Assembly (NCBI RefSeq): GCF_041583155.1
Contig: NZ_JBFHGK010000010.1
Span: forward strand, 33,216-97,215
Origin: Mariniflexile sp.
GTDB taxonomy: Bacteria; Bacteroidota; Bacteroidia; Flavobacteriales; Flavobacteriaceae
Reading direction: 5' to 3'
DNA: 64,000 nt
The translations under genes were made by a program, and so were the position numbers. Shown here in pieces: positions 1 to 56,282 of this stretch (the first letter of the stretch is position 1; the number at the start of each line of letters is the position of its first letter). Under the pieces are notes generated by a model that was not told the origin of the DNA, ran no database searches, and saw only the letters and a list, made by a program, of their open reading frames with translations.

Positions 1-107
1 TCCAAGTATTTGTTTTCATCAGGATTGTAAATTTCACAAAACAAAACATCGTCTTCTATCCAAAACTTAGACTGTTCTATTTCTATAATATCGCTTTTAT
101 CAGTCAT
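1..107 (-). CDS. small STAS/SpoIIAA-like protein, B-type paralogue (N-terminal part only; runs off the window edge)
   Basis: Too short for the ORF track. The reverse complement of 1..107 reads MTDKSDIIEIEQSKFWIEDDVLFCEIYNPDENKYL. This is clearly paralogous to the N-terminus of 8325..8747 (MTNKDDFIELERSEFWTETGVLFCKIRNPDENINL). Its ATG overlaps the TAA of 107..520 by one base (TAATG). Confidence 0.7.
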   Translation of the reverse strand, partial: MTDKSDIIEIEQSKFWIEDDVLFCEIYNPDENKYL

Positions 108-520
108 TATTGTTCTGAATTAAATATGTAATTAGTTTTTAAAGAATAATGAACTGCTTTTTCGAAAGAACAAAATATTCTATTAGGTATTATAGGGTCG
201 GGAATGAGGTTAAAAATGGCTAAACCAAATTTTGTAGCGAATGAACTTACCACAAAAGATTTAGACAGCACTATTGTTTTAAGCTCCAAATTCCTGGAAA
301 GTTTTTTTACTACGGAAAACACATAACCATCACCAAGATTTCTGAGATCTATTACTAATGGATAATACCGCCCATTTGATAATTTGTCAATTACACTGAA
401 GTAATCTTTTAAATTTTCCGTATTAAAATTATTAACAGACTCTTTTTGCATGAACCGGCAAAAAACCACTCCACTGTCTAGCCAAAATTCTGCATTCCCA
501 CATTTAACTTTTTTGCTCAT
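107..520 (-). CDS. small STAS/SpoIIAA-like protein, A-type paralogue (function unknown)
   Basis: 137-aa ORF with an ATG start. It is roughly half identical by eye to 8744..9163, sharing blocks FW..GV.FC, PLVIDLR, LSKSFVVSS and IPN..F...E.A..YSL. The layout (strand, ..IDLR.. strand, C-terminal F....A..Y/W-L) resembles the STAS_2/SpoIIAA-like family. The family assignment is tentative. Confidence 0.65.
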   Translation of the reverse strand: MSKKVKCGNAEFWLDSGVVFCRFMQKESVNNFNTENLKDYFSVIDKLSNGRYYPLVIDLRNLGDGYVFSVVKKLSRNLELKTIVLSKSFVVSSFATKFGLAIFNLIPDPIIPNRIFCSFEKAVHYSLKTNYIFNSEQ

Positions 521-544
521 AACTATTTGAATTACAAACTAAAA

Positions 545-560
545 GACAATTGATGTGCCA
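545..560 (-). promoter_or_regulatory. sigma-54 type -24/-12 promoter (TGGCAC-ATCAA-TTGTC) for the 107..520 operon
   Basis: The minus strand reads TGGCACATCAATTGTC, ending 24 nt upstream of the ATG at 520. It matches TGGCAC-N5-TTGC except for the last C (T here). The same 16-mer with 1-2 changes is found at 9190..9205 in front of the paralogous operon. Confidence 0.55.
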
Positions 561-650
561 AAGTATGCCAAACACAAAAGAAACAATTTCAAGTGTCTGA
601 TTTTCAGTTATATATGTTTTTTAAGCAAAAACACAGACATAAAAAAAGTC

Positions 651-662
651 ACGGTATATCGT
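651..662. promoter_or_regulatory. putative enhancer (UAS) palindrome, proximal site (ACGGTATATCGT)
   Basis: Imperfect ACGG-N4-CCGT palindrome embedded in GTCACG..CGTGAC. Its centre lies 98 nt from the GG of the -24 box. That distance is the same as for the site at 9296..9307. Confidence 0.45.
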
Positions 663-691
663 GACTTTTTTTGATGTAAAATTTTGAAATA

Positions 692-703
692 ACGGTATTC
701 CGT
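692..703. promoter_or_regulatory. putative enhancer (UAS) palindrome, distal site (ACGGTATTCCGT)
   Basis: ACGG-N4-CCGT palindrome whose centre is 41 nt from the proximal site, the same spacing as at 9337..9348. The flank AAATAACGGTATTCCGTGAGT is nearly identical to the reverse complement of 9291..9313. Confidence 0.5.
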
Positions 704-1008
704 GAGTGTTACTTCCTAATAATCAGTACATTTCAAAATAAAATTATAAAGCTTCATTAGAAAATAATCCAAAAAAAAAGCTACCCTTTATAGGACAGCT
801 TATATTATAATTTTACTTTTCTAATTCTAGTTAAAAAATTGGGTTTCCTTAATTGCTATAAAATGTAATTTAAAATACCATATAAAATCTAAATTCATTA
901 GTATTAGTAAAATTACGACAAGAAAGATAGTTATATTTACTTTCAATAAAATACAACTAGCAACACCCTATTAGCAGGTTTCATTTGGAATTATAATATT
1001 ATAATTTG

Positions 1009-2016
1009 CTATTTGGCATACTCCGTTCTACTACCATCACTATCAATTTCATAATGAAAATCAATTTCCAACAAAGCAACATAGTCGTTAAAAGTATCAC
1101 TAGCATTTGTAGTATACCTATAAAGCCTACACATTAACATACTAGAAATTTCTTTACCAGTACCATCAATGGCCCCTAAAGGAGTGATAGCATGCTCATA
1201 CGCACTAACCGAACCTCCATTTGAAGGCACCAAAGTACTTCCGCTTACAGTTGTAGTATTTGGAAACACAGCACCAACATTAGTCCATGTATACTCTAAA
1301 GCCCAAACAACAGTATTTGACCCGACATCCGACTTGGAGGACCAATGCACATGCGGATAAATGGTTGATCCTTCTTTCCACCCATGAGGCAATTGAACAC
1401 TAAAAACCACGGAAGGCTCTTTATTGTAAGGAAAAAATAGCGCGGCGGTATTATCTTTAAACACGTCGTATTCAACATCGGTAATATCTGTTTTCTTTAT
1501 TTGAACCGTATTTACTGGTACTTTTAAATCATCAAACCTTGTAGCAGTACCTTCAAAACTCAAAGACCCATCACTTCCTATATAAGTATTATTAGTACCG
1601 TCTCCAAATCTGGTATTTCCTGCGTCGTCAATTGTCATTCGTTCACTACCGTTCGTAGTGAAGCGTATTTTATCATCATCGGGCGTTTTTTCAACTTCAA
1701 TTCTTGTATCACCTTCTTCGTTTACCATTTTATCTGGTGCGTTATCAGATAGCTCTGTCCAACTAGTTTTATAGAACCAAAAACTTTGCGTAGTGGTATC
1801 AAAAACTAACAAACCTGTTACCGGACTCGCAATGGCCATTCTTTGAGTTGAATCCATTCTAGGAATAAGAATTCCTTTTGAAGAAGACTGAATATCTAGC
1901 ATAGATGAACTATCCGGGCTATTTGTACCAATACCCACTTGTGATTTAACGGAATAAGTGATAAAAAAACAAGCGATTAGTGCGCATTTGAAAATTAAAG
2001 TATAAATGCTTTTCAT
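1009..2016 (-). CDS. secreted protein of unknown function with a tail-fibre-like N-terminal motif
   Basis: 335 aa with a signal peptide (MKSIYTLIFKCALIACFFITYSVKSQ). This is followed by VGIGT..P..S.MLDI.S..KG.L.PRM...QR.AI..P..GLLVFDT, a motif I recognise from many Bacteroidota proteins annotated as tail-fibre-domain proteins. The C-terminal beta-rich domain is unassigned. It lies 12 nt downstream of 2029..3987, so the two are probably co-transcribed. Confidence 0.6.
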   Translation of the reverse strand: MKSIYTLIFKCALIACFFITYSVKSQVGIGTNSPDSSSMLDIQSSSKGILIPRMDSTQRMAIASPVTGLLVFDTTTQSFWFYKTSWTELSDNAPDKMVNEEGDTRIEVEKTPDDDKIRFTTNGSERMTIDDAGNTRFGDGTNNTYIGSDGSLSFEGTATRFDDLKVPVNTVQIKKTDITDVEYDVFKDNTAALFFPYNKEPSVVFSVQLPHGWKEGSTIYPHVHWSSKSDVGSNTVVWALEYTWTNVGAVFPNTTTVSGSTLVPSNGGSVSAYEHAITPLGAIDGTGKEISSMLMCRLYRYTTNASDTFNDYVALLEIDFHYEIDSDGSRTEYAK

Positions 2017-2028
2017 TTTAATAATTTT

Positions 2029-3987
2029 TTAATTGGCTATTTTAAAGGTTTTGCTTCCCTCGTTTGAATGTACTACAACTAAATACACACCTTGAGAATG
2101 CTGTAATGGAATTTCAATTTGTTCTTTATTTAATACTTCATTTTTAAGTTCAACAACATACTGACCTAACATATTGTATACCAACACATTATTTAACCTT
2201 AAAAGCTTTTTATTGTTTACTACTATCGTATTATCTTTATAATAAACTTGTATATTTTCTTCTATACTCGATTTTATGCTCAGCGCATGTTCTGGAATAA
2301 ACACCAATTCAAAACGACCATTATAAACTCCTGATGGCAGGCTAAGTTCAAGGCTCGCATCTTTTAAATTATAGGTTTTATTTAACACATTATCCTTAAT
2401 GTAAACGGGATCTGGAAAATTCTCTACCGCGTCTAGCATGATTGTATGAATTCCTGATTCTTTAATTATTAAACTCAAAGGAAACTTATATGAAGCGTCA
2501 TAACTTCCAACGCCTTGAATTATATATTTTTTCGAAAAATCATTATCTATTATAAAGAACAAATCATTATCTCGTGTAGTGGAAGGAATCGCATCATAAC
2601 CTAGGTTAACACCTAAATCTGCCGTTGTTCCTGGCAAAAATCCCAGCAATAGTTGCCTATGATAGCCTTCAGGACTATTATAACCAATTCTTATATATTT
2701 TTTATCTGTATCCGCAACCTTTTCATTTTTTTGGCCAGTAGTTTTATAAAAACTTGAAATAACACCGTCTTCTGTTTTAAATACGCGTTGCGAATTACTA
2801 AAAACAACATTTCCATTAGAAATAGCGTCAATAAAAAACCCTTGAGCAACTGCAATATAGCGTTTGGGAATCACCCCTGAAGAGGTACCCAGCCCTGATA
2901 TTGTACTAATTAATGATGGCGCCACACCTCCAGTTAAATTATAAACAGCATACCCACCTTGGTAATCGGCCAAATAATGCGAAGTTGAACCGCCATCAAC
3001 CCAAAATTGTATATTATCAAAAACACTAAGATTATCTGCTATTAATTTATTAGCATCAATAGCCGAAGGATATGGGTTACCAAATAATGCACTTTGCCCT
3101 GATAGTATTGGAAATGTTATATCACCATTATTAGGAACACCTTTAAAAACATAATTTTGACCAACTACACCAGACCCTTTTATTGAAAATCCATATCCAG
3201 GATTAATAGCTGTGCTGCTCGTAATTTGTTTCCACCCATAGTAACTATTACTATTTTGCGGGAACATATATAACCATCTAGTATTTACTGTAAGAGGTGT
3301 AACTACGTTACCACTGCCATTTAAAACAGATGATGCACCATTGTAAGGCGAACCAGAATTAAATAAAATTTGTTGGGGTGAAAATGGACTTAAACCTGCA
3401 TCTGTACCATCATACAAGCCACCATATAATGAAAAAGTACCAGTATTATTAGTAGTTGGAGACGACATATAATTATAAGCATAACCGTTTGAAGTTCCTT
3501 GTTGATCTTTTAATAAACTTCCTGAAATAACCGTATTTGTATTGGCCCCTATCTGTTTTTGAACTAATTGAGAATTGCCTGCTAAACGCAAATCTCCATT
3601 TACCAAATTTAAATTTTTGGTTACTACAACACCTATATTATCTGCTACATAAACCCCTTTTTTAGACGCTCCATAAACATCAACTTCTAAATTATAAAAC
3701 TGAATACTATCGCGTGTCCCACTTATATTTAAAACGTCATTTGCCAAACTTTTAAAATAGGTTGTTCCAGAAGCAGAGGACGCCACACCATTATTAACAA
3801 AATTGTCATTAAAATATAGATCTACATCATTTACATGAATCCCTGTTGATTGATTTACATATGCATTTTCAAAATACACCGAAGTTGATGGTGATATTTT
3901 TAAAGTTCCTTCGTTTACAATTTGCGCAAAAGTAGAATTCGAGATTACTAAGCAAAGGCAATAAAACGCCAAAATTTTTATATTCAT
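2029..3987 (-). CDS. T9SS type A C-terminal sorting domain protein (large secreted protein)
   Basis: The track ORF starts at a TTG at 3993. The first ATG at 3987 gives MNIKILAFYCLCLVISNSTFAQ, a signal peptide. The C-terminus (..NVLVYNMLGQYV..GVYLVVVHSNEGSKTFKIAN) is a typical Por/T9SS sorting tail. The body is Asn/Gly/Ser-rich and beta-like. Confidence 0.75.
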   Translation of the reverse strand: MNIKILAFYCLCLVISNSTFAQIVNEGTLKISPSTSVYFENAYVNQSTGIHVNDVDLYFNDNFVNNGVASSASGTTYFKSLANDVLNISGTRDSIQFYNLEVDVYGASKKGVYVADNIGVVVTKNLNLVNGDLRLAGNSQLVQKQIGANTNTVISGSLLKDQQGTSNGYAYNYMSSPTTNNTGTFSLYGGLYDGTDAGLSPFSPQQILFNSGSPYNGASSVLNGSGNVVTPLTVNTRWLYMFPQNSNSYYGWKQITSSTAINPGYGFSIKGSGVVGQNYVFKGVPNNGDITFPILSGQSALFGNPYPSAIDANKLIADNLSVFDNIQFWVDGGSTSHYLADYQGGYAVYNLTGGVAPSLISTISGLGTSSGVIPKRYIAVAQGFFIDAISNGNVVFSNSQRVFKTEDGVISSFYKTTGQKNEKVADTDKKYIRIGYNSPEGYHRQLLLGFLPGTTADLGVNLGYDAIPSTTRDNDLFFIIDNDFSKKYIIQGVGSYDASYKFPLSLIIKESGIHTIMLDAVENFPDPVYIKDNVLNKTYNLKDASLELSLPSGVYNGRFELVFIPEHALSIKSSIEENIQVYYKDNTIVVNNKKLLRLNNVLVYNMLGQYVVELKNEVLNKEQIEIPLQHSQGVYLVVVHSNEGSKTFKIAN

Positions 3988-4165
3988 AACCAATACCCTA
4001 TTTGGTTGTTGCTACATATAAAGTTAAAATTCCGGACGGGTTATTTACATGACATTTATCATGTTTGACTATATATTGTGTTTTTTACCCAAGTAAAATG
4101 TATTTTATCGATTATTTAATACTATAAACGCTTGAGTATGTTTTTTTCGTACAATATATTTAGGT

Positions 4166-5776
4166 CTAGAAGTTTCTTAATAACTTGGCAGTAAATCCAT
4201 CGCTGTTAACATTCTGACTTTCCGAATTAATAATAGGAAAACAGAAAAAGAAGGTACTCCCTTTTCCTATAGCTGAATCAATCCAGATATTACCATCCAA
4301 TAGCTTAACCAACTTCTTAACTATTGTAAGCCCGATACCTAAACCTTCATGTAGTCTGTTATAAGAATTATTAACCTGCGTGAAGCCTTTAAAAATTAAA
4401 TCGTAATGCGCTTCTTCAATACCAATTCCTGTGTCAGAAACAAAAAATGTAATATAAACTTTACCATCTTCCTGACACACGTTGAACCCTAAGTTTACAT
4501 CACCATTTTCTGAAAATTTAAACGCATTTTTTAAGAGGTTTATTAAAATGTGTTTTAGTTTCAACTCATCAATATAAATGGTAATATGTTTATATTCTGA
4601 AGGAATTTTTAGATTAAATTTTATATGGTTTTTTCCTATTGTATTTTGATAGTCTTTCATTAGCAAATAAACATCATCAAACAAATCAGCTAAACCAATT
4701 TTTTTATTATGAATTTTCACTTTGCCCGATTCAATTAAGGAAATATTAAATAAGTCTTCAATAAGTTTAAGTAAATGTTCCCCATTTTTATGAATAATTT
4801 GGTTGTATTCCAAAATCTCATTCATAGGCGAATCGGCATCTATAAGTCCAGATAATCCTATTATAGCATTAAGGGGTGTTCTAAGTTCGTGAGACATAGT
4901 TGCCAAAAACTCCGACTTTAATTTATCCGATTCTCTGCCTTTTTCTATAGCTGCTTCAAGTTCTGCTATATATTTAATCCTTTTAGAAATATCATGTTGA
5001 ATTCCCAAATACCCAATAACGTTATTGCCACTATCCAAGATAGGATCTATAGTACTTTCCAAGTCAATTAAACTACCATCCTTCCTTTTGTTTTGATAAT
5101 GGGACATTTTAAAACTTTTCTTGTTTTTAAGGGTTTGCCAAAGCAACTTAAAACGATCGTCATCGTTGCATCCCTTTAAAACTCGAGGGGTAAACCGTCC
5201 TATAACTTCACAAGCAGTATAACCGTAGGTTTTTGTGAATTGCGGGTTCACGTAGGTTATGATGCCATCAGGATCTGTCATTATAACGATGTCGTTTGAA
5301 TTTTTCATTGCCAAATCCAATTTTCTCAACAAAAATTCATTAGACTTGCGTTCCGTTATATCCCTAATCCCAAAAACAAAATAGGTATTACCTCTTAACT
5401 GCCAATCAGAAAAAGAAAGTTCTACAGGAATTTCTTTACCATCTTTTCGTATGGCTAATAATTCAAAGTTTTTTGCAATATGTTTGCGGTGCCCTTGAGT
5501 AAAATAACCTTGTAGAATTTGGCGTTTTATTTCAAACTTATTTGATATAATTTCAAATATACTTTTACCTACAATTTCGTTGGATTGAAACCCCAACATT
5601 CTTTCCGCAGCCGGATTCCATGACAAAATAAAACCATCATAATCAACACTAACCATTGCATCCGTTGCATTTTCAACTATAGCCTCATTTAGTTTTTCAG
5701 ACTTAAGTACTTTTTCTTTAAGTATTTTATTCTCTGCCAAAAGCATTTCAATAGTTTCCTTGTCATTTTTCTCCAT
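4166..5776 (-). CDS. soluble PAS-PAS sensor histidine kinase (no TM segment, no receiver)
   Basis: 536 aa. It has two PAS modules ending in IRDITERK and IQHDISKR. The H-box is SEFLATMSHELRTPLN. N and G boxes are present (LINLLKNAFKF, DTGIGI, GLGIGL). It is a tandem paralogue of 6289..7878. Confidence 0.9.
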   Translation of the reverse strand: MEKNDKETIEMLLAENKILKEKVLKSEKLNEAIVENATDAMVSVDYDGFILSWNPAAERMLGFQSNEIVGKSIFEIISNKFEIKRQILQGYFTQGHRKHIAKNFELLAIRKDGKEIPVELSFSDWQLRGNTYFVFGIRDITERKSNEFLLRKLDLAMKNSNDIVIMTDPDGIITYVNPQFTKTYGYTACEVIGRFTPRVLKGCNDDDRFKLLWQTLKNKKSFKMSHYQNKRKDGSLIDLESTIDPILDSGNNVIGYLGIQHDISKRIKYIAELEAAIEKGRESDKLKSEFLATMSHELRTPLNAIIGLSGLIDADSPMNEILEYNQIIHKNGEHLLKLIEDLFNISLIESGKVKIHNKKIGLADLFDDVYLLMKDYQNTIGKNHIKFNLKIPSEYKHITIYIDELKLKHILINLLKNAFKFSENGDVNLGFNVCQEDGKVYITFFVSDTGIGIEEAHYDLIFKGFTQVNNSYNRLHEGLGIGLTIVKKLVKLLDGNIWIDSAIGKGSTFFFCFPIINSESQNVNSDGFTAKLLRNF

Positions 5777-6288
5777 CTTTTACTAAATTTTAATTCTACT
5801 AAACTTAATGACAAAAAAAACACACGTTACTATTGGGTTAAAAACGTTATCCTTAGGCAATAGAAACTTCAATTAACAAACACAATACGTTTTGCTCACC
5901 TTTCGTCATCATTAATTTATAATTTCATCTGACAAAATAACAGCGTTATTAATTGATAGGCATTGACAATTGTCATATTACAGTTTAAATACAATACAGA
6001 CATGAATTAAAGAAAAGAAAAGCCAATATAAACATTGTTTTTTAACACTAATTAACTCATTAAGCCTCCCACAAATAAAAAAAGCGACCCTTTTACAGAC
6101 CGCTAATTTTGCTATTAATTAAAAATAATTGAGATATAATTTCGCTATTTACTAAAACCCATACGGGACCAAATTTAAGAACCATAAATGACGGTATTTA
6201 ACAAAGCATTAATCCGGATATTTCGATTCTTAAAAAACATACCGACAATTGCTTTATTAAATAGTTTAAGGCTTTTATATTTATCCTA

Positions 6289-7878
6289 TTATTTAAAGTC
6301 ACTCAACAATGTAGTATTGTTTACGTGACTATCAATAACTTGGCATTCCGTGTTCACAACAGGAAAAGAGAAAAAGAAGGTACTTCCATTACCTAATTTT
6401 GATTCTATCCAGATATTTCCATCCAATAGTTTCAACAGCTTTTTCACTATAGTTAGCCCAACGCCTATGCCATCATAAATCCTATTATACGAATTATTGA
6501 CTTGCGTAAAGCCTTTAAAAATTAAATCGTAATGTTCTTGATCTATACCTATTCCTGTGTCATTCACAAAAAAAGTAACAAACTCCTCACCAGCGGTTTC
6601 GCGCACATTAAATCCAAAATTAACATCGCCATTTTCCGAAAATTTAAAACCATTTTTTATCAAGTTTATTAAAATATGTTTCAATTTAAAATCATCAGCA
6701 TATATACGCATATGCTTATATTCATCAGGAATTTTTAAATTGAAATTTATATGAGTCTTCCCTAATTTTTTCTGATGTTCCTTCATTAAAATATAAACTT
6801 CATCAAATAAATTAGCCAACTCAAAATGTCTTTTATACACCTTCACTTTACCCGATTCAATTAAGGAAATATTAAATAAGTCTTCAATAAGCTTAAGTAA
6901 ATGTTCCCCATTTTTATGAATAATTTGGTTGTATTCCAAAATCTCATTCAATGGCGAGTCGGCATCTATAAGTCCAGATAATCCTATTATAGCATTAAGT
7001 GGTGTTCTGAGTTCGTGAGACATGGTTGCCAGAAACTCCGATTTTATTCTGTCCGATTCTTTTTCCTTTTCTATAGCTTCCTCTAGTTTAGCCACATATT
7101 TAATTCTGCTACTAATATCATGCTGAATCCCCAAATATCCAATAACCTCACCTTCGTCATTAAGAATAGGGTCGATAGTACTCTCTAAATCTATGAAACT
7201 GCCATCCTTTTTTCTATTTTGGTAATGGCCCATTTTAAAACTTTTCTTCTCTTTAAGGGTTGCCCAAAGGCTTTCAAACCAATCTGAACCACCAGAAACT
7301 TTAAGAATTCTAGGAGTATGCTTCCCGATTACCTCATGAGGTTGGTAACCATAAATTTGCGTAAATTTAGGATTAACATAAGTAATTATTCCATCAAGAT
7401 TCGTCATTAAAACAATGTCGTTGGAGTTTTTTATTGCCAGATCTAGTTTTTTAATCAAGAAATCATTAGCCTTTCGCTCACTGATATCCCTAAAACCGAA
7501 AACAAAATTTCTATTACCATCAAATTGCCAATCTGAAAAAGAAAGTTCTACCGGAAACTCTTCACCGCCTTTTCGAATGGCCATTAATTCAAAGTTTTTT
7601 TTGGCAATTTGCTGACCTAAAAGCTGATGTTTTATTTCACTTTTATCGGATATTATTTCATAAATACTTTTATTAATAATTTCACTAGCACTAAATCCAA
7701 AAATTCTTTCGGCAGCAGGATTCCAAGACAAAATAACCCCAAGGTGATCCACACTTACCATGGCATCGGTAGAATTTTCAACTATTAATTCATTTAGTCT
7801 ATTGGACTGAATGGCTTTTTCTTTAAGCGTTTCTATCTCCGCTAAAAGCATTTGCATTGTTTTAAAATCTTCAATCAT
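6289..7878 (-). CDS. soluble PAS-PAS sensor histidine kinase (paralogue of 4166..5776)
   Basis: 529 aa with the same architecture and H-box as 4166..5776. It lies 67 nt downstream of the PAS gene 7946..8335 on the same strand. Confidence 0.9.
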   Translation of the reverse strand: MIEDFKTMQMLLAEIETLKEKAIQSNRLNELIVENSTDAMVSVDHLGVILSWNPAAERIFGFSASEIINKSIYEIISDKSEIKHQLLGQQIAKKNFELMAIRKGGEEFPVELSFSDWQFDGNRNFVFGFRDISERKANDFLIKKLDLAIKNSNDIVLMTNLDGIITYVNPKFTQIYGYQPHEVIGKHTPRILKVSGGSDWFESLWATLKEKKSFKMGHYQNRKKDGSFIDLESTIDPILNDEGEVIGYLGIQHDISSRIKYVAKLEEAIEKEKESDRIKSEFLATMSHELRTPLNAIIGLSGLIDADSPLNEILEYNQIIHKNGEHLLKLIEDLFNISLIESGKVKVYKRHFELANLFDEVYILMKEHQKKLGKTHINFNLKIPDEYKHMRIYADDFKLKHILINLIKNGFKFSENGDVNFGFNVRETAGEEFVTFFVNDTGIGIDQEHYDLIFKGFTQVNNSYNRIYDGIGVGLTIVKKLLKLLDGNIWIESKLGNGSTFFFSFPVVNTECQVIDSHVNNTTLLSDFK

Positions 7879-7945
7879 AATCCGATTTTCTCGCTATAAC
7901 ACATAACTCACTATAACTAATAACTCCATACCGCTGAAATCTGTT

Positions 7946-8335
7946 TTAGAGCTTCTCTTCAGAAACATCTTTATACATGGACACGAAGCTTTCTACATTG
8001 CCTTCACTATTTTTAATTGGTACGATAGTGGTTTCCAAACAAAATAGCTCACCTGATTTTGCCTTGTTAGTTAGTACACCACACCAAACAAAGCCATTTT
8101 TTATAGTTTCCCATAAATTTTTATAAAACTCATCATTTTGAAGATTTAAAGAAAACAAGCTATTTACCACTCCTAAAAGTTCATTTTCCTGATATCCGGT
8201 TATCTCACAAAATATATTATTAACATAAACAATACGGCCGTAATTGTCGGATACCGATATAGCCATATTTGTTCCAATAAATTGAGATGCGACAAGTTCT
8301 GATTTTTCGCACCAATTAAAATCTTTATTCGACAT
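7946..8335 (-). CDS. stand-alone PAS domain protein
   Basis: 129 aa with a single PAS fold pattern (..ISVSD..GRIVYVN..FCEITGY...ELLG......F...W..I..G..W.G......K.GE.F....TI.PI.N..G....FV....DVSE). Its start overlaps the end of 8325..8747 by 11 nt. Confidence 0.8.
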   Translation of the reverse strand: MSNKDFNWCEKSELVASQFIGTNMAISVSDNYGRIVYVNNIFCEITGYQENELLGVVNSLFSLNLQNDEFYKNLWETIKNGFVWCGVLTNKAKSGELFCLETTIVPIKNSEGNVESFVSMYKDVSEEKL

Positions 8336-8747
8336 CTTTTTGCTGTTCTTTCACATTCTGCACATATTCCAGAGCATCATTGTAATTATTAAATATTTCA
8401 AAGGGAGTAATTGGTTCGTAAATTCTTTTGTAGGACATTATTAGCAATCTTACTTTTAAAGAGTCCACAACAAATGCCTGAGCCAGACACAACTGAATAA
8501 GCTTAGTATCGCTAGATAATTTTTTAGCGCCTGATGTTAAAAAAGTACCATGTGTATTTCTTAAATCTATTAAAAATGGCTTTTTTTGACCTTCACATAA
8601 ATCTATTACAGCTTGCAAATGCTTATCAACTGTTTCTTCACTTAAATTTATGTTCTCATCAGGGTTTCTAATTTTACAAAATAAAACACCAGTTTCGGTC
8701 CAAAATTCGGAGCGTTCGAGTTCTATAAAATCATCTTTATTGGTCAT
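8325..8747 (-). CDS. small STAS/SpoIIAA-like protein, B-type
   Basis: The track ORF extends to 8774. The ATG at 8747 (MTNKDDFIELERSEFW..) matches the paralogue start at 107 and overlaps the TGA of 8744..9163 (ATGA). Motifs include PFLIDLRN, AFVVDS and EIFNNYNDALEYV. Confidence 0.65.
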   Translation of the reverse strand: MTNKDDFIELERSEFWTETGVLFCKIRNPDENINLSEETVDKHLQAVIDLCEGQKKPFLIDLRNTHGTFLTSGAKKLSSDTKLIQLCLAQAFVVDSLKVRLLIMSYKRIYEPITPFEIFNNYNDALEYVQNVKEQQKDVE

Positions 8748-9163
8748 ATTGATTTTTGGGTATTGAAAACACAATTGGTTTCTAAAGAATACTTTATAGC
8801 ATTTTCAAGGTTAGTAAATACTTTATTGGGGATAACTGAGTCTTGATTCATGATAAACAAGATTACATTCAGTTTCATAATACAAGAACTCACTACGAAT
8901 GATTTTGAAAGAATAAAAGAGTTGAGTTCAGGATTTTCAGATAATAATTCAATGGCTAATAATGCGCATTTGTTTTTAAGAGCTCTTAGATCGATAACCA
9001 ATGGAAAATGGCCATCCTTGGACAAGGTACTTATTGCTTCTAAAAAATCATCTAAAAAATGTACACTAAAATGATCATCGGCTTCATGAGGTATAAATTC
9101 ACAGAATAGCACCCCTTCATTAAACCAAAATTTAGCTTTTCTACACAGTATCTGTTCACTCAT
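8744..9163 (-). CDS. small STAS/SpoIIAA-like protein, A-type
   Basis: 139 aa and a paralogue of 107..520. It is the first gene behind the sigma-54-type promoter at 9190..9205. Confidence 0.65.
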   Translation of the reverse strand: MSEQILCRKAKFWFNEGVLFCEFIPHEADDHFSVHFLDDFLEAISTLSKDGHFPLVIDLRALKNKCALLAIELLSENPELNSFILSKSFVVSSCIMKLNVILFIMNQDSVIPNKVFTNLENAIKYSLETNCVFNTQKSI

Positions 9164-9189
9164 AATTGTAATTCATTTTAAAATTGAAT

Positions 9190-9205
9190 GACAATTGGTG
9201 TGCCA
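9190..9205 (-). promoter_or_regulatory. sigma-54 type -24/-12 promoter (TGGCAC-ACCAA-TTGTC)
   Basis: The minus strand reads TGGCACACCAATTGTC, ending 26 nt upstream of the ATG at 9163. It is a twin of 545..560. Confidence 0.55.
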
Positions 9206-9295
9206 AAGCACAACTATGCGCTACACATAATACTTATCTAATTGATTTTTAAATATTTAAGTTTTAATGAGAAAATACAGTGAATTACAGAACTC

Positions 9296-9307
9296 ACGGG
9301 ATACCGT
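9296..9307. promoter_or_regulatory. putative enhancer (UAS) palindrome, proximal site (ACGGGATACCGT)
   Basis: ACGG-N4-CCGT palindrome with its centre 98 nt from the GG of the -24 box. Confidence 0.5.
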
Positions 9308-9336
9308 TATTTTAAACCCTTAATTGACCTAAATTA

Positions 9337-9348
9337 ACGGAATACCGT
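9337..9348. promoter_or_regulatory. putative enhancer (UAS) palindrome, distal site (ACGGAATACCGT)
   Basis: This site is embedded in TAACGG-AATA-CCGTTA, which has 6-bp arms. It lies 41 nt centre to centre from the proximal site, immediately after the stop codon of the EBP gene. Confidence 0.5.
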
Positions 9349-9352
9349 TATT

Positions 9353-12322
9353 TTATGAAGGTTTTACTATGTTTAATTTGGTCATTTTATCCCGCAATGT
9401 ACTTGGTTTTAATTCTAGTAAAACAGCTGCGCCTTTAGGACCACTAATTTTCCAATCGCATTGTTTTAACACCTGAATAATATGATTGCGTTGGGCCGTG
9501 TCTAGGGATAAGTTTTTGGTATGACTTGTTATTTTAGTTTTTTGAGATTCGGACTCAAAACCAGGAATTACAAGTGTTTCATTAACCGATAAGATTACAG
9601 CTCTTTCTATTAAATTCTCTAATTCTCTAATATTTCCTGGCCAATTATATTCTTTTAACTGGTGCATAGCATCATCAGAAATGAACTTAATATGTTTGGC
9701 GTAGGCCTTATTAAATTTATCAACAAAATGTTCTACCAATAGTGGTATATCATCTTTTCGATCTTTCAGTGGAGGTACAACTATAGGAAATACGTTTAAT
9801 CTAAAATACAAATCTTCCCGAAACCTGTTGTTTTCAATTTCCTTTTTTAAGTTCCTGTTTGTTGCTGCAATAACCCTAACATCCAACTTTTTAGAGATCG
9901 AACCTCCAACTACCTCAATTTCACCTTCTTGCAAAAACCGTAAGATTTTTGGCTGCATATCTAATGGCAATTCACCTATTTCATCTAAGAATAAGGTTCC
10001 GCCGTCTGCTAATTCAAATTTCCCAATTTTATCACTAAAAGCACCTGTGAACGAACCCTTTTTATGTCCGAATAACTCACTTTCAATTAATTCTCTTGGA
10101 ATAGCCGAACAGTTAACCTTTATTAACGGCTTGTTATTTCTTAGGCTTATATTATGCACCGCCCTAGCTAACAACTCTTTACCTGTTCCAGATTCACCCA
10201 ACAACAAAACAGTAGCAGTAGTGGGCGCTACCTTCTCAACCTCGGTAAGTACTTTGCTAAATTGTACACTGCCGTAAACCATTTCTTCGTAGTTAAAGGC
10301 TAAATCGATTTCATTTCTTAGATATACATTTTCCTCTTCTAATTGGCTACGAAGAATGTTCAACTCGTTATTAGCTTTCTTTAATTCTTCGTTTGCTTTT
10401 GCTATTTCATTTTCTGATAATTTACGAGAGGTTATATCCTGAATGGTACCATAGAAATTTACAGGTATCCCTTCTTTAAAAACAACTTCTCCTAAACCGT
10501 GTATCCATTTTAATTCGTTATGGTCTTTAGTAATAATTCGGAACTCTAAATCATATTTTCCTCCGGTTTCTATACACCATTTTAGTGCCTTTTCACTAGC
10601 CAGCAAATCATCAGGATGTGTAATTGTCTTCCAAATATCAAATGTAAATTCAGTATTAATCTCAATACCAACAATTTCTTTGAATGAAGTTGAAGTTTCG
10701 GCAACTTTAGTTGTTAAATCCAAATTATAACTTCCCACTTTAGCAATACGCTGCGCTTCCGTTAATGATTTTTCACTCTTCAATAACTTCTGTTCAGCCA
10801 ACCGTTTTTGCGTAACGTCTCTAATAATACAAATTAAATATTTGTCGCCATCATCATCAATAAATCTGGTTTTTTTTGTTGAAATATAAAGGGTTTTACC
10901 ACCTTTAATGGTAAGGGTTTCTTCGTTTATGTTTTCAACTCCAGTGGCAAGCACTTGTCTATCAATAAACATAAAAGCGTCCTGCTCTTCCGGCGCTACG
11001 TCTTCAGCTAGCGTTCTACCAATTATTTGGTCTTTGGTAGCTCCAAACAACTTACAAAAAGCATCATTTACCAACACCATTCGGCTTTCTTCATCTTTTA
11101 CAAAAAAGGGGTCGCCAATATTATTAAGAAAGCTATCTAATGATTTTTCACTTTTAATTAATAGCTCTTCATTCTTTTTTCGTTCGGTTATATCATCAAT
11201 AGTTGAAAAGAAGATTTTTGTTTTACCCTTTTTATTTTTTATTACAGAAGTTGTAATCTCAACTGGGAATTTTTCTCCATTTTTACGAACATACACAAAC
11301 TGATACACCCCTACTTCACCCTTTAACGTAAGTTTAAGAGCGATTTCTAATTTATCGAATGATTCTGGTGCCCAATAAGGAAATGGCGCTTTCAGCCCTA
11401 TTAATTCTTTTCGTTTATAGCCAAGCATTTTGCATAGCCCAGGATTTACGTCTATAATTTCACCTTTACCGTTAATTACTGTTATTCCTTGGCGCAAGGA
11501 TTTAATCAGGTTTTCCGCATATATCTTCCCTTCTTTAACCTGTTTTTGAGCCCTAATTCTTTCGGTTACATCATGAAAAAATACTGAAACTCCATCACTA
11601 GTAGGTATAATACGATTTTCAAACCAGCAATCCCAGGGCTCATAATATTCCTCTAAAACAAAACTTTGTTGCGTTTCTATAGATTTATAACAATTATTAT
11701 AAAATGGTTTTCCAACAATGGCTGGAAACTCTGTCCAAATATGTTTGCCTATTAATTCCTCTGGTTTACGCCCTAGCATATTGGCCGCTTTTTTATTCAC
11801 GTAAGTATAAACCCATTGCTTGTTTAGAGATACAAAACCATCCGTCATATCCTCAATAGAATTAACAATAAAGTTTTGCGCTTTAAAAAGAGCCTCTGTA
11901 TTTTTTATTAATGCTAACTCTTGTTGCTCTTGGTAATCTGGTAATTTATCTATGTTGTTAATGGAACTTAAAACAAAATCTTCATTATCAACAGAAATTA
12001 CATACATGGTTAATAAAACATGTATTTCCGTGCCATTTTTAACTCGGATGAAATTTTCATAAGAGACTAACTCCTGTTCGGTTAATAACTTCTCTCTTAG
12101 ATGTTGCACGCTTTCTTGGCTCATTAAATTAAGCTCCAAAGTTGTTTTACCAAAAACTTCTTCTTGAGAAAAGCCAGTAAACTCTTCCCATGCAGGATTT
12201 ACGAAGGCATACTTTTTTGTTGTTAAGCTTGAAATTGATTTAGGAATAGGGCTGTTCTGAAACAAATTTGTAAATAAATTTATTTTTTCAAATTTGGAGA
12301 TGAGGGCATTTGGTTGTTCCAT
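9353..12322 (-). CDS. sigma-54-dependent transcriptional activator (bacterial enhancer-binding protein) with about five N-terminal PAS modules and no receiver domain
   Basis: AAA+ core motifs: Walker A GESGTGKE, Walker B LFLDEIGE, and the sigma-54 contact loop GSFTGA (a GAFTGA variant). A C-terminal Fis-type HTH is present (..[36 protein letters not shown]). The N-terminal ~690 aa show PAS-type repeats ending in ..DVTERI, ..DDITERK, ..RDVTQKR and ..QDITSRK. The track ORF starts at a TTG at 12430. I prefer the first ATG at 12322 ([11 protein letters not shown]..). Confidence 0.9.
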
Positions 12323-12553
12323 TTTAAACTTAAATTCTAATCTTTCGTAAGATTTATCTAATATAATATTTTTAATTGTAAGAAGAAGAAATAATACAAA
12401 CAGACGTGCTTTTTTAACTAAAATCTCCAAAAAAAAATAGGAACCATTTTAGCAAAACGATTATTCAATTTTTCAAACTTTTTTCAGCCTTATTGTCAAA
12501 AATCTAAACAATTTTATAATTAAAATATGACGGATATCATTAGTAATTATTCA

Positions 12554-12597
12554 CAAAAAAAGCTTTCCAATTTTCTTAAATAAAAAAAGGAAAGCTT
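12554..12597 (-). terminator. putative rho-independent terminator after 12660..14300
   Basis: On the minus strand, a 9-bp stem AAGCTTTCC / GGAAAGCTT with a 20-nt A/T loop is followed by a T7 run. Confidence 0.45.
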
Positions 12598-12659
12598 CCA
12601 ATAAACAAGAATTACAAATTGTTTTTATAATATTTTCAATTTACATCAAATAAGCAGAA

Positions 12660-14300
12660 TTAAAATAGCTTTTTATAATAATCATCCGCCATTCTATGCG
12701 ACGTGAATTCCGGAATCACATCATCCATTGCCGTAAATACAATATCTTGCCAAACCTCGGGTTGGTCGTAAAAAGTGGGAATTACCTTAGTTTCCAAAAT
12801 ATGGTATAAGTTATCCGTGTCAATTTGATCCTGATCCCATATTGGCATATTATGATCTAAAGCAGGTAATACAAAACAGTTTTTGGTGTCTTTTTGAAAT
12901 TCTGGAATCCAGCCATCGTTGGTAGACACATTAACCGAACCATTCATAGCTGCCGCCATCCCACTGGTTCCAGAGGCTTCACGGGTAATTCGAGGTGTAT
13001 TCAGCCAAACATCAGAACCACATTTAAGTTTCTTTGACAACTCAATTTCATAACCAATTAAGACCGCCAAATTTGGTTCGTTTTTACATTGATATACTAA
13101 GTGATTAAACAAATCGATAGCGCCATAATCAAAAGGATATGGTTTTCCTGCCCAAATTATTTGAACAGGGTATTTTTCGTTGGAAATTAAACGTTTAAAA
13201 CGATCAAAATCACGCAAAAGTAAATCGGCCCTTTTGTAGCCTGCAAAACGTCGAGCCCAAACTATGGTTAATACATTAGGATCGAACACCTTACCTGTTT
13301 GAGAATAAACCTCAGCCGCAAGGTTACTTTTTAAATCGGACTTACGCTTCTTATATGCTTCAGTATCTTTAGCAATCCAAGCATTTTTTATACTTTCGTC
13401 TTGCCAAAATTTTTGATTCTGGGCATTTGTGATTGGAATTATTTCACATATTCCTGGATAGTCTTTCCACATATCATTAGCTACAATAGCGTGCAATTTA
13501 GAAACTCCATTGGCTTTTTTTGCCATTCGTAATGCGGAAACTGTATAATTAATCATGCCCCCATTAACCATTTCTTTTTGAAGCTCTTCATCCGAAAGTC
13601 TTCGGCCAAAAAAACCACATCTATTTAAATGTCTCGCTTCCCGTTCTTCATTCCCTGCCTTTTCAGGTGTATGGGTTGTAAACACCATTTGGTTTTTACC
13701 AACACCTCTGTCTCTTAAATAATAAAAAGCCGGCAATGCATGCCCCTCATTTAAATGATAAGTGTCTGCACCTCCTAACGCTTCAACTACCTTGGCTCCA
13801 CCAATTCCAAGCACAATACTTTGTGAAACCCTAGTAACTTGATTATTATCGTATAGATGATTTGTAATTGTTCTGGACAAATGGTCATTGCCTTCCACAT
13901 CGGTGGTTAAAAAATACATAGGTACCGTTCCAAAAATTTCAGGTTTTAAAACATAGGCCCTTACCTTCACATGCGGATTATCATGAAGCGTAATCTCAAC
14001 CTCAATACCTGTATCTTCCAGGAAATCAAAATGTTTTACATTAAAATCGGACCACAATGTTTGGTCTTGGTTTCTTGCCTGATCATAATAACCATATTTC
14101 CAAAGCATCCCAATGCCTATCATGTTTTGTTTTAGTTCCAATCCAGAACGCATATGGGAACCTGCAAGAAATCCCAATCCACCCGAATAAATATTGAAAG
14201 ATTGGTCTATTCCAAATTCCATACTAAAATAAGCCACCTTTTTTTTGTATTCCTTAGCAGGGGTATAAGGATGATACCATTTACTATATATATTTTCCAT
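12660..14300 (-). CDS. short-form alpha-glucan phosphorylase family protein (GT35-like), atypical cofactor site
   Basis: 546 aa with family blocks YFSMEFGI, YSGGLGFLAG, HLNEGHA, FTTHTPEKAGNE and WAGKPYP. The signature reads REASGTSGMAAAMNG where the family normally has EASGTSGMK. See findings. Confidence 0.75.
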   Translation of the reverse strand: MENIYSKWYHPYTPAKEYKKKVAYFSMEFGIDQSFNIYSGGLGFLAGSHMRSGLELKQNMIGIGMLWKYGYYDQARNQDQTLWSDFNVKHFDFLEDTGIEVEITLHDNPHVKVRAYVLKPEIFGTVPMYFLTTDVEGNDHLSRTITNHLYDNNQVTRVSQSIVLGIGGAKVVEALGGADTYHLNEGHALPAFYYLRDRGVGKNQMVFTTHTPEKAGNEEREARHLNRCGFFGRRLSDEELQKEMVNGGMINYTVSALRMAKKANGVSKLHAIVANDMWKDYPGICEIIPITNAQNQKFWQDESIKNAWIAKDTEAYKKRKSDLKSNLAAEVYSQTGKVFDPNVLTIVWARRFAGYKRADLLLRDFDRFKRLISNEKYPVQIIWAGKPYPFDYGAIDLFNHLVYQCKNEPNLAVLIGYEIELSKKLKCGSDVWLNTPRITREASGTSGMAAAMNGSVNVSTNDGWIPEFQKDTKNCFVLPALDHNMPIWDQDQIDTDNLYHILETKVIPTFYDQPEVWQDIVFTAMDDVIPEFTSHRMADDYYKKLF

Positions 14301-17160: not shown

Positions 17161-20100
17161 TTAATTCAATTTAAATAAGACATCCTGATTTTGTAATTCG
17201 TTAAGTAATTCTTGAGAAACTTTTACTTTATGTTTTCTGCTTGGCATGGATAATTTTAACATTTCCTTGTTGTCATACACCACAAAATTAAGCGACTGAT
17301 TTCCTGGATGTGAATGAACTAACTCCTTTAATGCGGCAATTTTACGTTCATTTAAATCTCTAATATCCAATTGTATAGATAATTTTTTAGCATAGTTCTC
17401 CATAACATCGTGCAGCAACTGAAAACTATTGAACTGCAATCGAGGTTCACTCTTTTTACCTGTATCTTTATTTACCCAACCTTCTCTAACAAATGATTTC
17501 ACAAAAACAAAATTGCTTTTCATTAAAAAATGCCTAAACTTTAAGTATTCTTCACCAAAAATGCGAAACTCAAAACTATCGGTATAATCTTCAACTGTAA
17601 ACATAGCCCATCCTTTACCTTGCTTACTTACACGGTGTTGCACATCGGTAACTACACCACCAAAAACCAATTCTCTGTTCACATAAGGTTCTAAATCTTT
17701 AAAGAATGCCAAATTAGCGTTACAAAAGGTGTTCATCTCAATTTTAAAATCGTCTAACGGATGCCCAGAAATATAGATTCCTACCACTTCTTTTTCACGT
17801 GCTAATTTCTCCATAGTTCCCCACTCTTCACATGGTGGCACTTCGGGTTCGGCGATTTGCACATTACTGGCATCCCCAAACAAACTTACTTGCGCAGAAT
17901 TTTCATTTTCCTGATGTTTATTACCATAACGAATCGCTTTTTCTAAAAAAGTAATACCATCACCTTCATCATGAAAATATTGTGCACGATGGGTTGAACT
18001 AAAACCATCAAAGCCACCTGCCAACGCTAAATTCTCGAACGCTTTTTTATTAGCTGCACGTAAATCAATCCGCTTTGCAAAATCAAAAATTGTTTTATAA
18101 GGCCCGTCTTTCTTTCTGTTTTCAACAATTGTTAGTACGGCACCATGACCCACACCCTTTATGGCTCCCATTCCAAAACGAACTGCGTTATTTTTATTTA
18201 CTGAAAATTTATAGAATGATTCGTTTACATCTGGCCCTAAAACTTCCAGTTTCATACGCTTACATTCTTCCATAAAGAAAGTAACCTGTTTGATATCGTT
18301 CATGTTATTGGAAAGCACCGCCGCCATATATTCTGCTGGGTAATGCGCTTTTAAATAGGCTGTTTGGTAGGCTATCCATGCATAACAAGTAGAGTGCGAT
18401 TTATTGAAAGCATAACTTGCAAAAGCCTCCCAGTCTTTCCAAACTTTTTCCAACACTTTTGCATCATGGCCATTTGCACTCGCCTGTTCTACAAATTTAG
18501 GTTTCATTTTATCCAGTACCGCAATTTGCTTCTTACCCATTGCCTTTCTTAGTACATCGGCTTCACCTTTAGTAAATCCAGCAAGTTTTTGAGACAGTAA
18601 CATTACTTGCTCCTGATAAACGGTAATACCATAAGTTTCCTTTAGGTATTCTTCCATGGCATCTAAATCGTACTCAATTGGCTCTTCACCATGTTTGCGT
18701 CGTGTAAAACTTGGAATATACTCCATAGGCCCCGGACGATACAAGGCATTCATTGCAATTAAATCTTCAAAAACGGTTGGTTTTAATTCCTTAAGGTGTT
18801 TTTGCATTCCGGGTGACTCGTATTGGAATACACCGACCGTTTCTCCCCGTTGGAACAACTCATAAGTTTTAACATCATCTAACGGAAAATTATCCGGATC
18901 GAGTAAAATATCATGTCTTGCCTTTACAATTTTAACGGTGTCCTTAATTAAGGTTAATGTTTTTAACCCCAAGAAATCCATTTTTAATAATCCAGCTTCC
19001 TCAACAACCGAGTTATCAAATTGGGTAACATATAAATCGGAATCTTTTGCCGTGGAGACGGGAACGAATTTGGTAATATCATCTGGCGTAATTATAACGC
19101 CACAAGCATGAATTCCCGTATTTCTTACGGATCCTTCAAGGGTTCTAGCTAAGTTTATCGTTTCCGCTTCTAAATCATCACCTTCGGAAATATTTAAAAG
19201 CTGATTCACCTTTTCTAAATCTTCCGCCCTAAACTTACTCGCTAATTCCTTCTCGCTTAAACCAAAGATTTTATTCAGTTTAGACATGGTTGGAATTAAT
19301 TTAGCAATTCTATCGGCATCAAACAATGGTAAATCAAGCACACGAGCCGTATCACGAATGGACGACTTTGCAGCCATAGTACCATAAGTAATAATTTGAG
19401 CCACCTGATTACTTCCGTATTTATTGATAACGTAATCCATCACCCGGCTTCTGCCTTCATCATCAAAATCGATATCAATATCGGGCATACTTACACGATC
19501 GGGATTCAAGAAGCGCTCAAAAAGCAAATCGTACTTAAGTGGATCTATATTAGTAATCCATAAACAATAGGCTACCACCGATCCTGCCGCCGAACCACGA
19601 CCCGGACCCACCGATACATCCATTTTTCGAGCTTCTCGAATAAAATCTTCAACAATTAAAAAGTAACCAGGATATCCTGTATTTTGAATAACATCGAGCT
19701 CAAAGTCTAAACGCTCTATAACTTCCTCCGAAAGTTCTTCTCCATAGCGTTTCTTAGCTCCTTCATAGGTTAAATACCGCAAATAGGCATTTTCACCTCG
19801 TTTCCCTCCATCGATTAAATCTTCTTCATTTTTAAAAGAGTCTGGAATATCGAATGCCGGTAACAACACCTCTCGGGCCAACTCGTAGGCTTCTACTTTA
19901 TCTACAACTTCTTGAATGTTACTAATAGCCTCAGGTACATCCTTAAAAATCTGCTTCATTTCTTCTGCAGACTTAAAATAATATTCCTGATTGGGTAATC
20001 CGTAGCGATAACCTCGACCACGACCTATAGGTGTTGCCTGCTTTTCTCCATCCTTTACGCACAATAAAATATCATGTGCATTGGCATCTTCCTTTTTACA

Positions 20101-55728: not shown

Positions 55729-55940
55729 CACTAAAAACAACGAAATTTCGTTTCGTTAAGTAAAGATAAAACTATTAACAATAATCCCTTGTAATTTTTG
55801 TAAGAATATAGCATTAATAACATTTAGGTAACAAACTGGATACCATAATTTAAACTTTCAACCAAAAACACCCATCTTTAACAATTTTTTGGCATCACTT
55901 TTGCGGATAATTAGTATCTTTATTCCGTTAAACAGAATTT

Positions 55941-56282
55941 ATGAAGAAACACTACTATCTAATCTTCTTTTTTGCATTAGCTTTTTTTACTACCCAACTA
56001 GGGTTTAGTCAAAATAATGCTAACAGCAATTCTGTGCAGCAAAATATAGAAGATTTATCCATTTACCCTAACCCTATAAGTAACGGTAAAACCCATATAT
56101 TTATTACATCAAGACGTAATTTTGCCAAAAAAATTGAGTTTTTCGATGTTTTAGGCAAACAAATATTCACAACAGTTCTTACTGGAAAAGAGTTAAACAT
56201 TTCCAATTTGAACAAAGGGGTGTATATTTTGAAAATTACCGAAGATAATATAAGTGAAACCAGAAAATTAGTGATTAGGTAA
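55941..56282 (+). CDS. small secreted protein consisting essentially of a signal peptide plus a T9SS type A sorting domain
   Basis: 113 aa. A signal peptide (MKKHYYLIFFFALAFFTTQLGFSQ) is followed by a short Asn/Ser linker. The remainder is LSIYPNP......I......KIEFFDVLGKQIF........ISNLNKGVYILKI.......RKLVIR. Confidence 0.75.
   Translation: MKKHYYLIFFFALAFFTTQLGFSQNNANSNSVQQNIEDLSIYPNPISNGKTHIFITSRRNFAKKIEFFDVLGKQIFTTVLTGKELNISNLNKGVYILKITEDNISETRKLVIR

Follow-up and report, generated by a model that had tools for sequence, protein, structure and literature searches.

The systems described so far that most resemble the locus reported here are the XylR-activated Pu promoter of the Pseudomonas TOL plasmid and the DmpR-activated Po promoter, where two tandem upstream activating sequences lie about 120-180 bp upstream, a site for integration host factor (IHF) falls between this enhancer and the sigma-54 -24/-12 promoter, and the activator is an unphosphorylated one-component sensor. 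NtrC at glnAp2 and NifA at nifH offer a related precedent, with dyad sites for HTH_8 (Fis-type) domains over 100 bp upstream of a GG-N10-GC promoter, an ATPase oligomer nucleated by tandem sites and, at nifH-type promoters, the use of IHF. To our knowledge, sigma-54 regulation has been little studied in Bacteroidota. A published survey of sigma-54 regulons covers class Flavobacteriia (PMC12316311), and comparative genomics of the Desulfovibrio vulgaris sigma-54 regulome has predicted PAS-containing one-component activators whose genes stand beside their target operon, with a palindrome about 100 bp from the sigma-54 promoter (PMC4641369). The present analysis concerns a stretch of 64,000 nucleotides from Mariniflexile sp. 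(contig NZ_JBFHGK010000010.1, positions 33,216 to 97,215; the whole stretch is hereafter called the window) and, within it, two promoter regions, A and B, each preceding an operon that opens with genes of the DUF7793 family. These are very probably enhancer-dependent sigma-54 promoters, both served by the activator encoded at 9353..12322.

Likeness to the known systems is one of architecture, and it is in the components that the locus goes its own way. Compared with XylR and DmpR, a chain of PAS domains stands as the sensor in place of a V4R/XylR_N domain, the site is unrelated (ACGG-N4-CCGT) and spaced by 40-41 bp, the host is a member of the Bacteroidota without IHF-beta, and the target is a signalling module rather than a catabolic operon. 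NtrC is a phosphorylated response regulator, whereas the activator considered here has no receiver domain; the NifA site, TGT-N10-ACA, is unlike ACGG-N4-CCGT; and phylum, motif and target genes all differ from those of the PAS activators of D. vulgaris. Literature searches yielded no described activator-site pair for Flavobacteriia or Flavobacterium, a search on FhlA sites gave nothing usable, and no member of the activator family is described in the literature found. The mechanism would be the textbook one of the XylR-Pu and NifA-nifH type, set in an undescribed activator family and target module, and what the locus adds is an IHF-like element in a phylum that lacks canonical IHF, a helix/site pair that appears to span phyla, and a systematic avoidance of C in the -12 box. 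The elements of the two promoter regions and the activator gene are listed below.

9353..12322, minus strand: gene for the predicted enhancer-binding protein, with about five PAS domains, a sigma-54 interaction AAA+ domain and a C-terminal HTH_8
9335..9350 (12-bp core 9337..9348), minus strand: putative distal enhancer site A, TAACGGTATTCCGTTA, centre 139 bp from the GG of the -24 box
9296..9307, minus strand: putative proximal enhancer site A, ACGGTATCCCGT, with 98 bp from its centre to the GG and 41 bp to the distal site
9235..9247, minus strand: IHF-consensus-like block A, AATCAATTAGATA, one mismatch to WATCAR-N4-TTR, starting 42 nt 5' of the T of TGGCAC
9191..9205, minus strand: predicted -24/-12 promoter A, TGGCACACCAATTGT, 27 nt from TTGT to ATG, kept in all orthologous loci
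692..703, minus strand: putative distal enhancer site B, ACGGAATACCGT, centre 139 bp from the GG
641..672, minus strand: palindrome containing putative proximal enhancer site B, core ACGATATACCGT at 651..662 with one mismatch
590..602, minus strand: IHF-consensus block B, AATCAGACACTTG, a perfect WATCAR-N4-TTR, starting 42 nt 5' of the T of TGGCAC
546..560, minus strand: predicted -24/-12 promoter B, TGGCACATCAATTGT, 25 nt from TTGT to ATG

A preliminary description of this DNA, made from the sequence, had assigned two ACGG-N4-CCGT palindromes to each promoter; this is exact for locus A, and at locus B the proximal site (651..662) departs from the pattern by one mismatch, reading ACGGTATATCGT on the plus strand and ACGATATACCGT on the minus strand. 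The identical geometry that it had claimed is borne out by measured centre distances, with 41 bp from site to site and 98 bp from the proximal centre to the GG in A and B alike. Exact copies of the palindrome occur three times in the window (at 692, 9296 and 9337; window G+C 34%) against 0.13 expected, an expectation in line with the earlier estimate of fewer than one chance hit per 64 kb; none of 100 shuffles reached three, and the pattern search found the copies confined to the two promoters, with no background scatter. TGGCAC-N5-TTGY, in turn, has two matches in 64 kb, namely promoters A and B (0.31 expected; two or more in 3 of 100 shuffles); both loci hold TGGCAC and TTG at exactly the N5 spacing, and the 16-mer boxes lie 26 nt (A) and 24 nt (B) before the ATGs, on the minus strand where they had been placed. 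With two dyad sites at each promoter, the arrangement is that of an enhancer, for which dyad sites, usually at least two, are expected about 80-200 bp upstream of the promoter.

The two loci were aligned without gaps and anchored on TGGCAC, since MAFFT mis-gapped the pair. Over 246 nt, from the upstream region through the start codon, identity is 49%; 13 of the 16 positions agree in each 16-bp site and 18 of the 19 in the promoter block, with no insertions or deletions, and the spacers are 39% identical where composition predicts 32%. Spacers this close to the level set by composition indicate that the background has been randomised and that the elements and their spacing have been kept. The preliminary description had rightly pointed to this divergence between the elements and had overlooked the IHF-like block that lies within it.

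The same islands emerge from orthologous promoters. Taking one genome per species, a scan for relatives of the first DUF7793 protein provided eight loci (Mariniflexile soesokkakense, M. aquimaris, M. gromovii, Algibacter amylolyticus, an Algibacter metagenome-assembled genome (MAG), Hwangdonia seohaensis and two Flavobacteriaceae MAGs). In all of them the activator gene directly precedes the first DUF7793 gene and a second DUF7793 gene follows it, and in most the PAS, kinase and receiver genes are there too. Every one of the eight has a TGG[CT]A[CT]-N5-TTGT box 27-28 nt from the ATG and two sites of the [AG]CGG-N4-CCGT type 39-41 bp apart (one proximal site reads ACGA), with the proximal site 98-100 bp and the distal site 138-139 bp from the GG. 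The consensus of the 20 sites from ten promoters is T-A-ACGG-T-A-T-W-CCGT-K-A, in which the core C, the first G, the CCG and the T are invariant. All 15 matches to [AG]CGG-N4-CCG[TC] in the 99 kb of these eight loci fall in the promoter region, and a relaxed sigma-54 pattern matched the promoter in each locus and only two other places. This footprint over ten promoters, which the preliminary description had proposed as a check, has both sites and the -24/-12 box standing out as conserved islands amid randomised DNA; sites that are kept while their flanks diverge among orthologous promoters are what an enhancer would be expected to leave.

The only open reading frame (ORF) of the window with a GAFTGA-type loop is 9353..12322, in keeping with its earlier designation as the sole enhancer-binding protein of the window, and its stop codon (9353..9355) is 4 nt from distal site A. 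Pfam assigns to the protein Sigma54_activat (PF00158, 4e-69), four to five PAS domains, AAA_lid_14 and HTH_8, the last as a sub-threshold match (E = 8e-4; 19.5 bits against a gathering cut-off of 22), and the Walker A motif, the GSFTGA loop and the Walker B motif are intact in the translation. The combination of Sigma54_activat, a GAFTGA loop and, at the C terminus, a helix-turn-helix (HTH) marks it as a probable AAA+ activator of the NtrC family. No NCBIfam equivalog reaches its cut-off with the activator, the best models being NifA, PrdR, FhlA and NorR, all below threshold, and a PDB sequence search with the C-terminal HTH region returned a weak NifA match only (E 0.03), which did not illuminate the site.

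A search of metagenomes for the site pair alone (ACGGNATNCCGT-N26-30-CGGNATNCCGT), blind to the genes around it, matched at least 120 contigs, and on at least 17 of them (29-41% G+C) the pair sits between the stop codon of an activator homologue and a DUF7793 operon, even though identity to the window is down to 26% for the DUF7793 protein and 26-60% for the operon proteins. Among the matches listed, 15 of the 19 low-GC contigs examined carry a TGGCA[CT]-N5-TTGN box whose GG is 96-100 bp from the proximal site, and the two sites of the low-GC loci are 38-41 bp apart; across all promoters measured, orthologues and scan loci together, the distal centre is 136-140 bp from the GG. In all 24 of the aligned group-1 loci, the pair begins 2-15 nt 3' of the activator stop codon. 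The strict pattern TGG[CT]A[CT]-N5-TTG[CT] found just 5 promoters at 97-99 bp, and it was relaxing the fourth base of the -12 element that brought the count to 15 of 19, the undercount arising because that base is free in this promoter family. The 15 boxed loci include one (L110) without a detectable activator or DUF7793 homologue on its contig and another (L124) that is an XRE-type locus. The recurrence of the pair, the spacing and the gene order over these loci suggests an architecture maintained over a wide evolutionary range.

The search also gathered matches of other kinds. Pairs of TTAACGG-N4-CCGTTAA about 41 bp apart occur on contigs without a sigma-54 activator (L124; L059, L061, L072, L104, L113, L115 and L122; L052, L066 and L077; L112 and L118), and in L124 the pair lies directly 5' of an XRE-type HTH gene; L124 and the activator-less families suggest that the 12-mer is used by other regulators as well. 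A REP-like palindrome, GGGGCACGGCATGCCGTGCCCC, is repeated on GC-rich contigs (L025, L027, L043, L048, L055, L056, L058, L065, L079, L088, L094, L098, L109, L117 and L125) and was caught by the search pattern solely through the ACGGCATGCCGT that it contains, and site-like pairs also turned up in tandem repeats.

Which protein reads the sites is best approached through a second, GC-rich group of loci. At least 13 contigs with 53-64% G+C (L021, L023, L053, L082, L092, L093, L101, L102, L108, L119, L121, L126 and L129) have three sites about 20 bp apart in a divergent region, ACGGAATTCCGT, a degenerate middle site and ACGGAATTCCGT again. To one side the gene of a two-PAS sigma-54 activator starts about 15 nt from the last site; to the other, a canonical TGGCAC-N5-TGCA promoter, separated from the first site by 45-48 nt that include a good IHF consensus, precedes the gene of a small secreted protein of about 50-115 aa, for which Pfam, run on the genes beside these sites, has no family. 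One further contig, L037 (67% G+C), follows the flavobacterial order of activator stop codon, pair and a TGGCAT-N5-GTGC box. The activator HTH reads W[KR]ISG..GAA.LL.[LI]KPSTLRD[KR]M in the flavobacterial set and WRVSG..GAA.LLG[VL][KR]P[ST]TL.DR[IM]R in the GC-rich set, so that the recognition helix (KPSTLxDRM) is common to the low-GC, the GC-rich divergent and the L037 activators, which share the same half-sites. The same helix with the same half-site, where targets and geometry have changed, ties the site to the DNA-binding domain of the activator; site specificity appears to track that domain, as a correlation, and it is probably the activator's own HTH that reads ACGG-N4-CCGT. A rule linking KPSTLxDRM with T-A-ACGG-N4-CCGT-K-A could be reused for predicting the targets of related activators in other phyla.

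The -12 element of these promoters deserves separate comment. TTGT lies 25-28 nt from the ATG in the window and in L001-L008, in boxes that are intergenic and on the coding strand. Over the 24 promoters tallied, the -12 box has T as its fourth base 14 times, G seven times, A twice and C once; the departure from TTGC that had been noticed is indeed common to promoters A and B, and as a family trait TTGT is typical only of the Mariniflexile/Algibacter-like clade, the wider family having TTGG, TTGA or TTGT and almost never TTGC. What is general, hence, is that the consensus C is avoided throughout this promoter family. Established work ties the -12 region to the stability of the closed complex and to basal activity, and a base other than C may serve to tune either of them.

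Between enhancer and promoter, the block that had been overlooked occupies about -68 to -56 when the GG is taken as -24, and it corresponds to the conserved columns 116-134 of alignment A4. A match to WATCAR-N4-TTR with at most one mismatch, starting at -41/-42 from the T of TGGCA on the promoter strand, is present in 16 of 23 promoters, compared with a mean of 1.1 and a maximum of 6 for shuffled spacers and with 0-2 for other windows of the spacer. At classical sigma-54 promoters, IHF sites are found in about this region. By its consensus, its A/T-rich 5' flank and its place in the enhancer-promoter interval, the block has the makings of an IHF site. A preprint describes Bacteroidetes as having an IHF-alpha-like protein only and no IHF-beta, and gives the sequence specificity of that protein as untested (bioRxiv 10.1101/2024.06.24.600358); a motif search of the 64-kb window for an HU/IHF gene found none. 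We hypothesise that these promoters are candidate natural targets of the Bacteroidota IHF-alpha-like protein. A bolder proposal, according to which the WATCAR-N4-TTR block is a sequence-specific IHF-alpha-like site and, in addition, the activator and ACGG-N4-CCGT form a recognition pair that crosses phyla from 29% to 67% GC, is put forward tentatively, as something possible rather than probable. If true, a phylum without IHF-beta would still build IHF-assisted sigma-54 enhancers in the manner of Proteobacteria, the blocks would be the first natural target sites for asking whether IHF-alpha-like proteins read DNA sequence, and the pair of helix and half-site would be usable for wide regulon prediction.

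The operons downstream of the two promoters, identified by Pfam and a terminator scan, are the following.

6289..9163, minus strand: operon A, two DUF7793/STAS-like genes, a PAS gene and a PAS histidine kinase gene
8744..9163, minus strand: first DUF7793 gene of operon A
8325..8747, minus strand: second DUF7793 gene of operon A
7946..8335, minus strand: PAS gene of operon A
6289..7878, minus strand: PAS histidine kinase gene of operon A
6104..6083, minus strand: terminator-like hairpin closing operon A
1..520, minus strand: start of operon B, with DUF7793 at 107..520 and, truncated after 35 codons by the window edge, a second DUF7793 gene

On the overlapping contig L009, operon B goes on with DUF7793, PAS, a PAS histidine kinase (620 aa) and a receiver (152 aa). 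An AlphaFold model of the first DUF7793 protein (mean confidence score, pLDDT, 85) has as its top Foldseek matches in the PDB the STAS structure 4xs5 (E 6e-5, TM 0.56-0.62), RsbS, the SpoIIAA-like DUF3478 and SiaC, at 10-18% sequence identity and a TM of about 0.55; the predicted model points to a STAS/SpoIIAA-like fold for the first two genes of the operon, and the label 'STAS-like' used in the preliminary description was a reasonable one. NCBIfam gave nothing for the DUF7793 proteins, and a full-text literature search found no paper on DUF7793. Between A and B, the paralogues share 41% identity for the first gene, 56% for the second and 72% for the PAS gene, which indicates an old duplication. 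The 3' ends are unlike: operon B retains the kinase and receiver seen in other genomes (L009 5612..7929), and operon A ends in a different PAS kinase (25% identical), without a receiver, at the terminator at 6104..6083; a further similar kinase (4166..5776) lies beyond a gap of 512 nt (5777..6288) after the operon A kinase. Related genomes have one such operon, directly downstream of the activator gene, and in the Mariniflexile sp. genome an ancient duplication probably took in the promoter region and the first three genes. Since both copies keep the full cis-architecture, one activator should drive both operons, and the regulon appears local, comprising the adjacent operon and, here, its duplicate.

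The mechanism that we propose would run as follows. Dimers of the activator, a multi-PAS sensor with an AAA+ ATPase and a C-terminal HTH, would occupy the two palindromes of about 16 bp (T-A-ACGG-TATW-CCGT-K-A), which are about four helical turns apart and, with the GG at -24, would have their centres at about -122 and -163 relative to the start. A signal at the PAS domains would cause the bound dimers to form the active ATPase ring, a bend at the IHF-like block near -62 would let the ring meet the closed complex of RNA polymerase and sigma-54 on TGGCAC-N5-TTGT, and ATP hydrolysis would open the promoter. The output would be a signalling module of two STAS-like proteins, a PAS protein and a PAS histidine kinase, with a receiver too in locus B. 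Activator binding, looping, the start site and RpoN dependence we infer from sequence. On these terms the locus offers a complete map of cis-regulation that can be put to the test; comprising a pair of activator sites, a bend site and the -24/-12 box, it is conserved across many marine flavobacteria and would serve a multi-PAS activator and a STAS-STAS-PAS-kinase-receiver module, and its IHF-like blocks are concrete DNA targets for the question of IHF-alpha-like sequence specificity in Bacteroidota. Its value lies in annotation and experimental design, and no new concept is involved.

Several observations weigh against reading A and B as sigma-54 promoters under this activator. Shuffle-based statistics overstate significance, given that sequences of related species are not independent samples; loci A and B have T in place of the consensus C at -12 (TTGT, not TTGC); a motif search of the 64-kb window for an ORF with the RpoN box found none; and similar 12-mer pairs stand in unrelated metagenome contexts, on contigs without an activator, so that the binding protein cannot be told from the motif alone. 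Since a GAFTGA-type activator is present, the genome in turn probably encodes rpoN. Motif statistics, footprinting, the gene-blind scan and the helix correlation nevertheless converge on the earlier claim that an enhancer-binding protein acts from the upstream sites on a sigma-54 promoter. It is quite improbable that the palindromes are operators of some other protein, such as an XRE-type or other HTH repressor encoded elsewhere, beside which the activator gene lies by coincidence. In favour of such a protein are the near-identical 12-mer pairs, about 41 bp apart, that precede the XRE-type gene of L124 and those of several metagenome families whose contigs lack a sigma-54 activator; yet the sites accompany an activator with the same helix in low-GC loci, in GC-rich divergent loci and in L037, where targets and geometry vary, no other DNA-binding gene is conserved at the locus, and a constant 96-100 bp to the -24/-12 box befits an enhancer and not a repressor operator.

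We consider it very unlikely that the palindromes act mainly in RNA, as hairpin terminators or insulators against read-through from the activator gene, rather than as protein sites. In many cases the proximal site forms the tip of a longer palindrome (mean 4.4 extra bp, up to 15), as at locus B, where it crowns a terminator-like palindrome with a 14-bp stem, AAAAAAAGTCACGATATACCGTGACTTTTTTT, and in several orthologues likewise, with stems reaching 19 bp in L013 and L039; it is often flanked by A/T runs, as in window locus B, L013, L032, L039, L051, L057, L063 and L080, a test for a stem of 6 plus a T tail was passed by 6 of 23, and the stem flanks differ between loci with pairing retained. A purely structural hairpin, however, would predict the opposite of a near-invariant 12-bp core between variable flanks. 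The proximal site of locus A and most distal sites form stems of 4-6 bp without a T tail; at locus A in particular, the distal stem is 6 bp with a weak tail and the proximal stem 4 bp, and the minus-strand terminator scan flagged neither. A separate terminator at 801..778, upstream of the locus B sites, means that these are not needed for terminating the preceding gene, and the GC-rich group has its sites in a divergent promoter region, 3' of no gene. In lineages with the longer palindrome, the proximal site may also terminate the activator gene and so have a dual role. Exceedingly remote, finally, is the notion that the shared motifs are functionless, either leftovers of duplication or chance in AT-rich DNA: loci A and B are paralogous, and some similarity, such as the 49% ungapped identity, is to be expected, but outside the elements the background is randomised, the first-gene paralogues have themselves fallen to 41%, distant relatives show the same elements at the same spacing in more than 20 independent loci, and three exact palindromes were never reached in shuffles of the window.

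Some features near the promoters stand apart from the activator and its sites. Across the predicted transcription start of locus A (9171..9189, minus strand) there is an inverted repeat, ATTCA...TGAAT (GTTGTTCAGTTTTTAAATTGAACAAC in L003), which has the same position in L001-L006, L008 and L074, with compensatory changes between species and folding z-scores down to -6; it is limited to the Mariniflexile/Algibacter-like clade and is weak at locus B. An mRNA leader hairpin was considered for this repeat 3' of the -12 box and rejected, its 5' arm lying upstream of the predicted start and the feature being confined to one clade; a DNA operator or a feature of the melted strand may be the better description. 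Rfam returned no RNA family on 1..13000 even at E = 1, which speaks against a known riboswitch or leader there. A sigma-70 scan was uninformative, with 65 matches against 61.8 in shuffles, Bacteroidota promoters differing from the model of the scan. A third sigma-54-like box, TGGCATCACTTTTGC, whose -12 element is the canonical TTGC, is intergenic at 55890..55904 on the plus strand, 36 nt 5' of the ATG of ORF 55941..56282 (113 aa, with a C-terminal sorting domain of the type IX secretion system (T9SS)); no ACGG-N4-CCGT is nearby, and if real the box would need a different activator, of which the window holds none.

Between the two operons, 1009..3993 (minus strand) holds the genes of a 654-aa protein that weakly matches a T9SS sorting tail and of a 335-aa protein, annotated as PTL_trimer on L009, for which NCBIfam gave nothing. 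In L063 the receiver gene is followed by a homologue of the T9SS protein, and in L097 one is found on the same contig; the link of this protein to the module may be a loose one. Further along, 17161..21549 (minus strand) encodes a DNA polymerase III alpha subunit of 1462 aa in which an N-terminal RNase_T-type exonuclease domain precedes the PHP domain.

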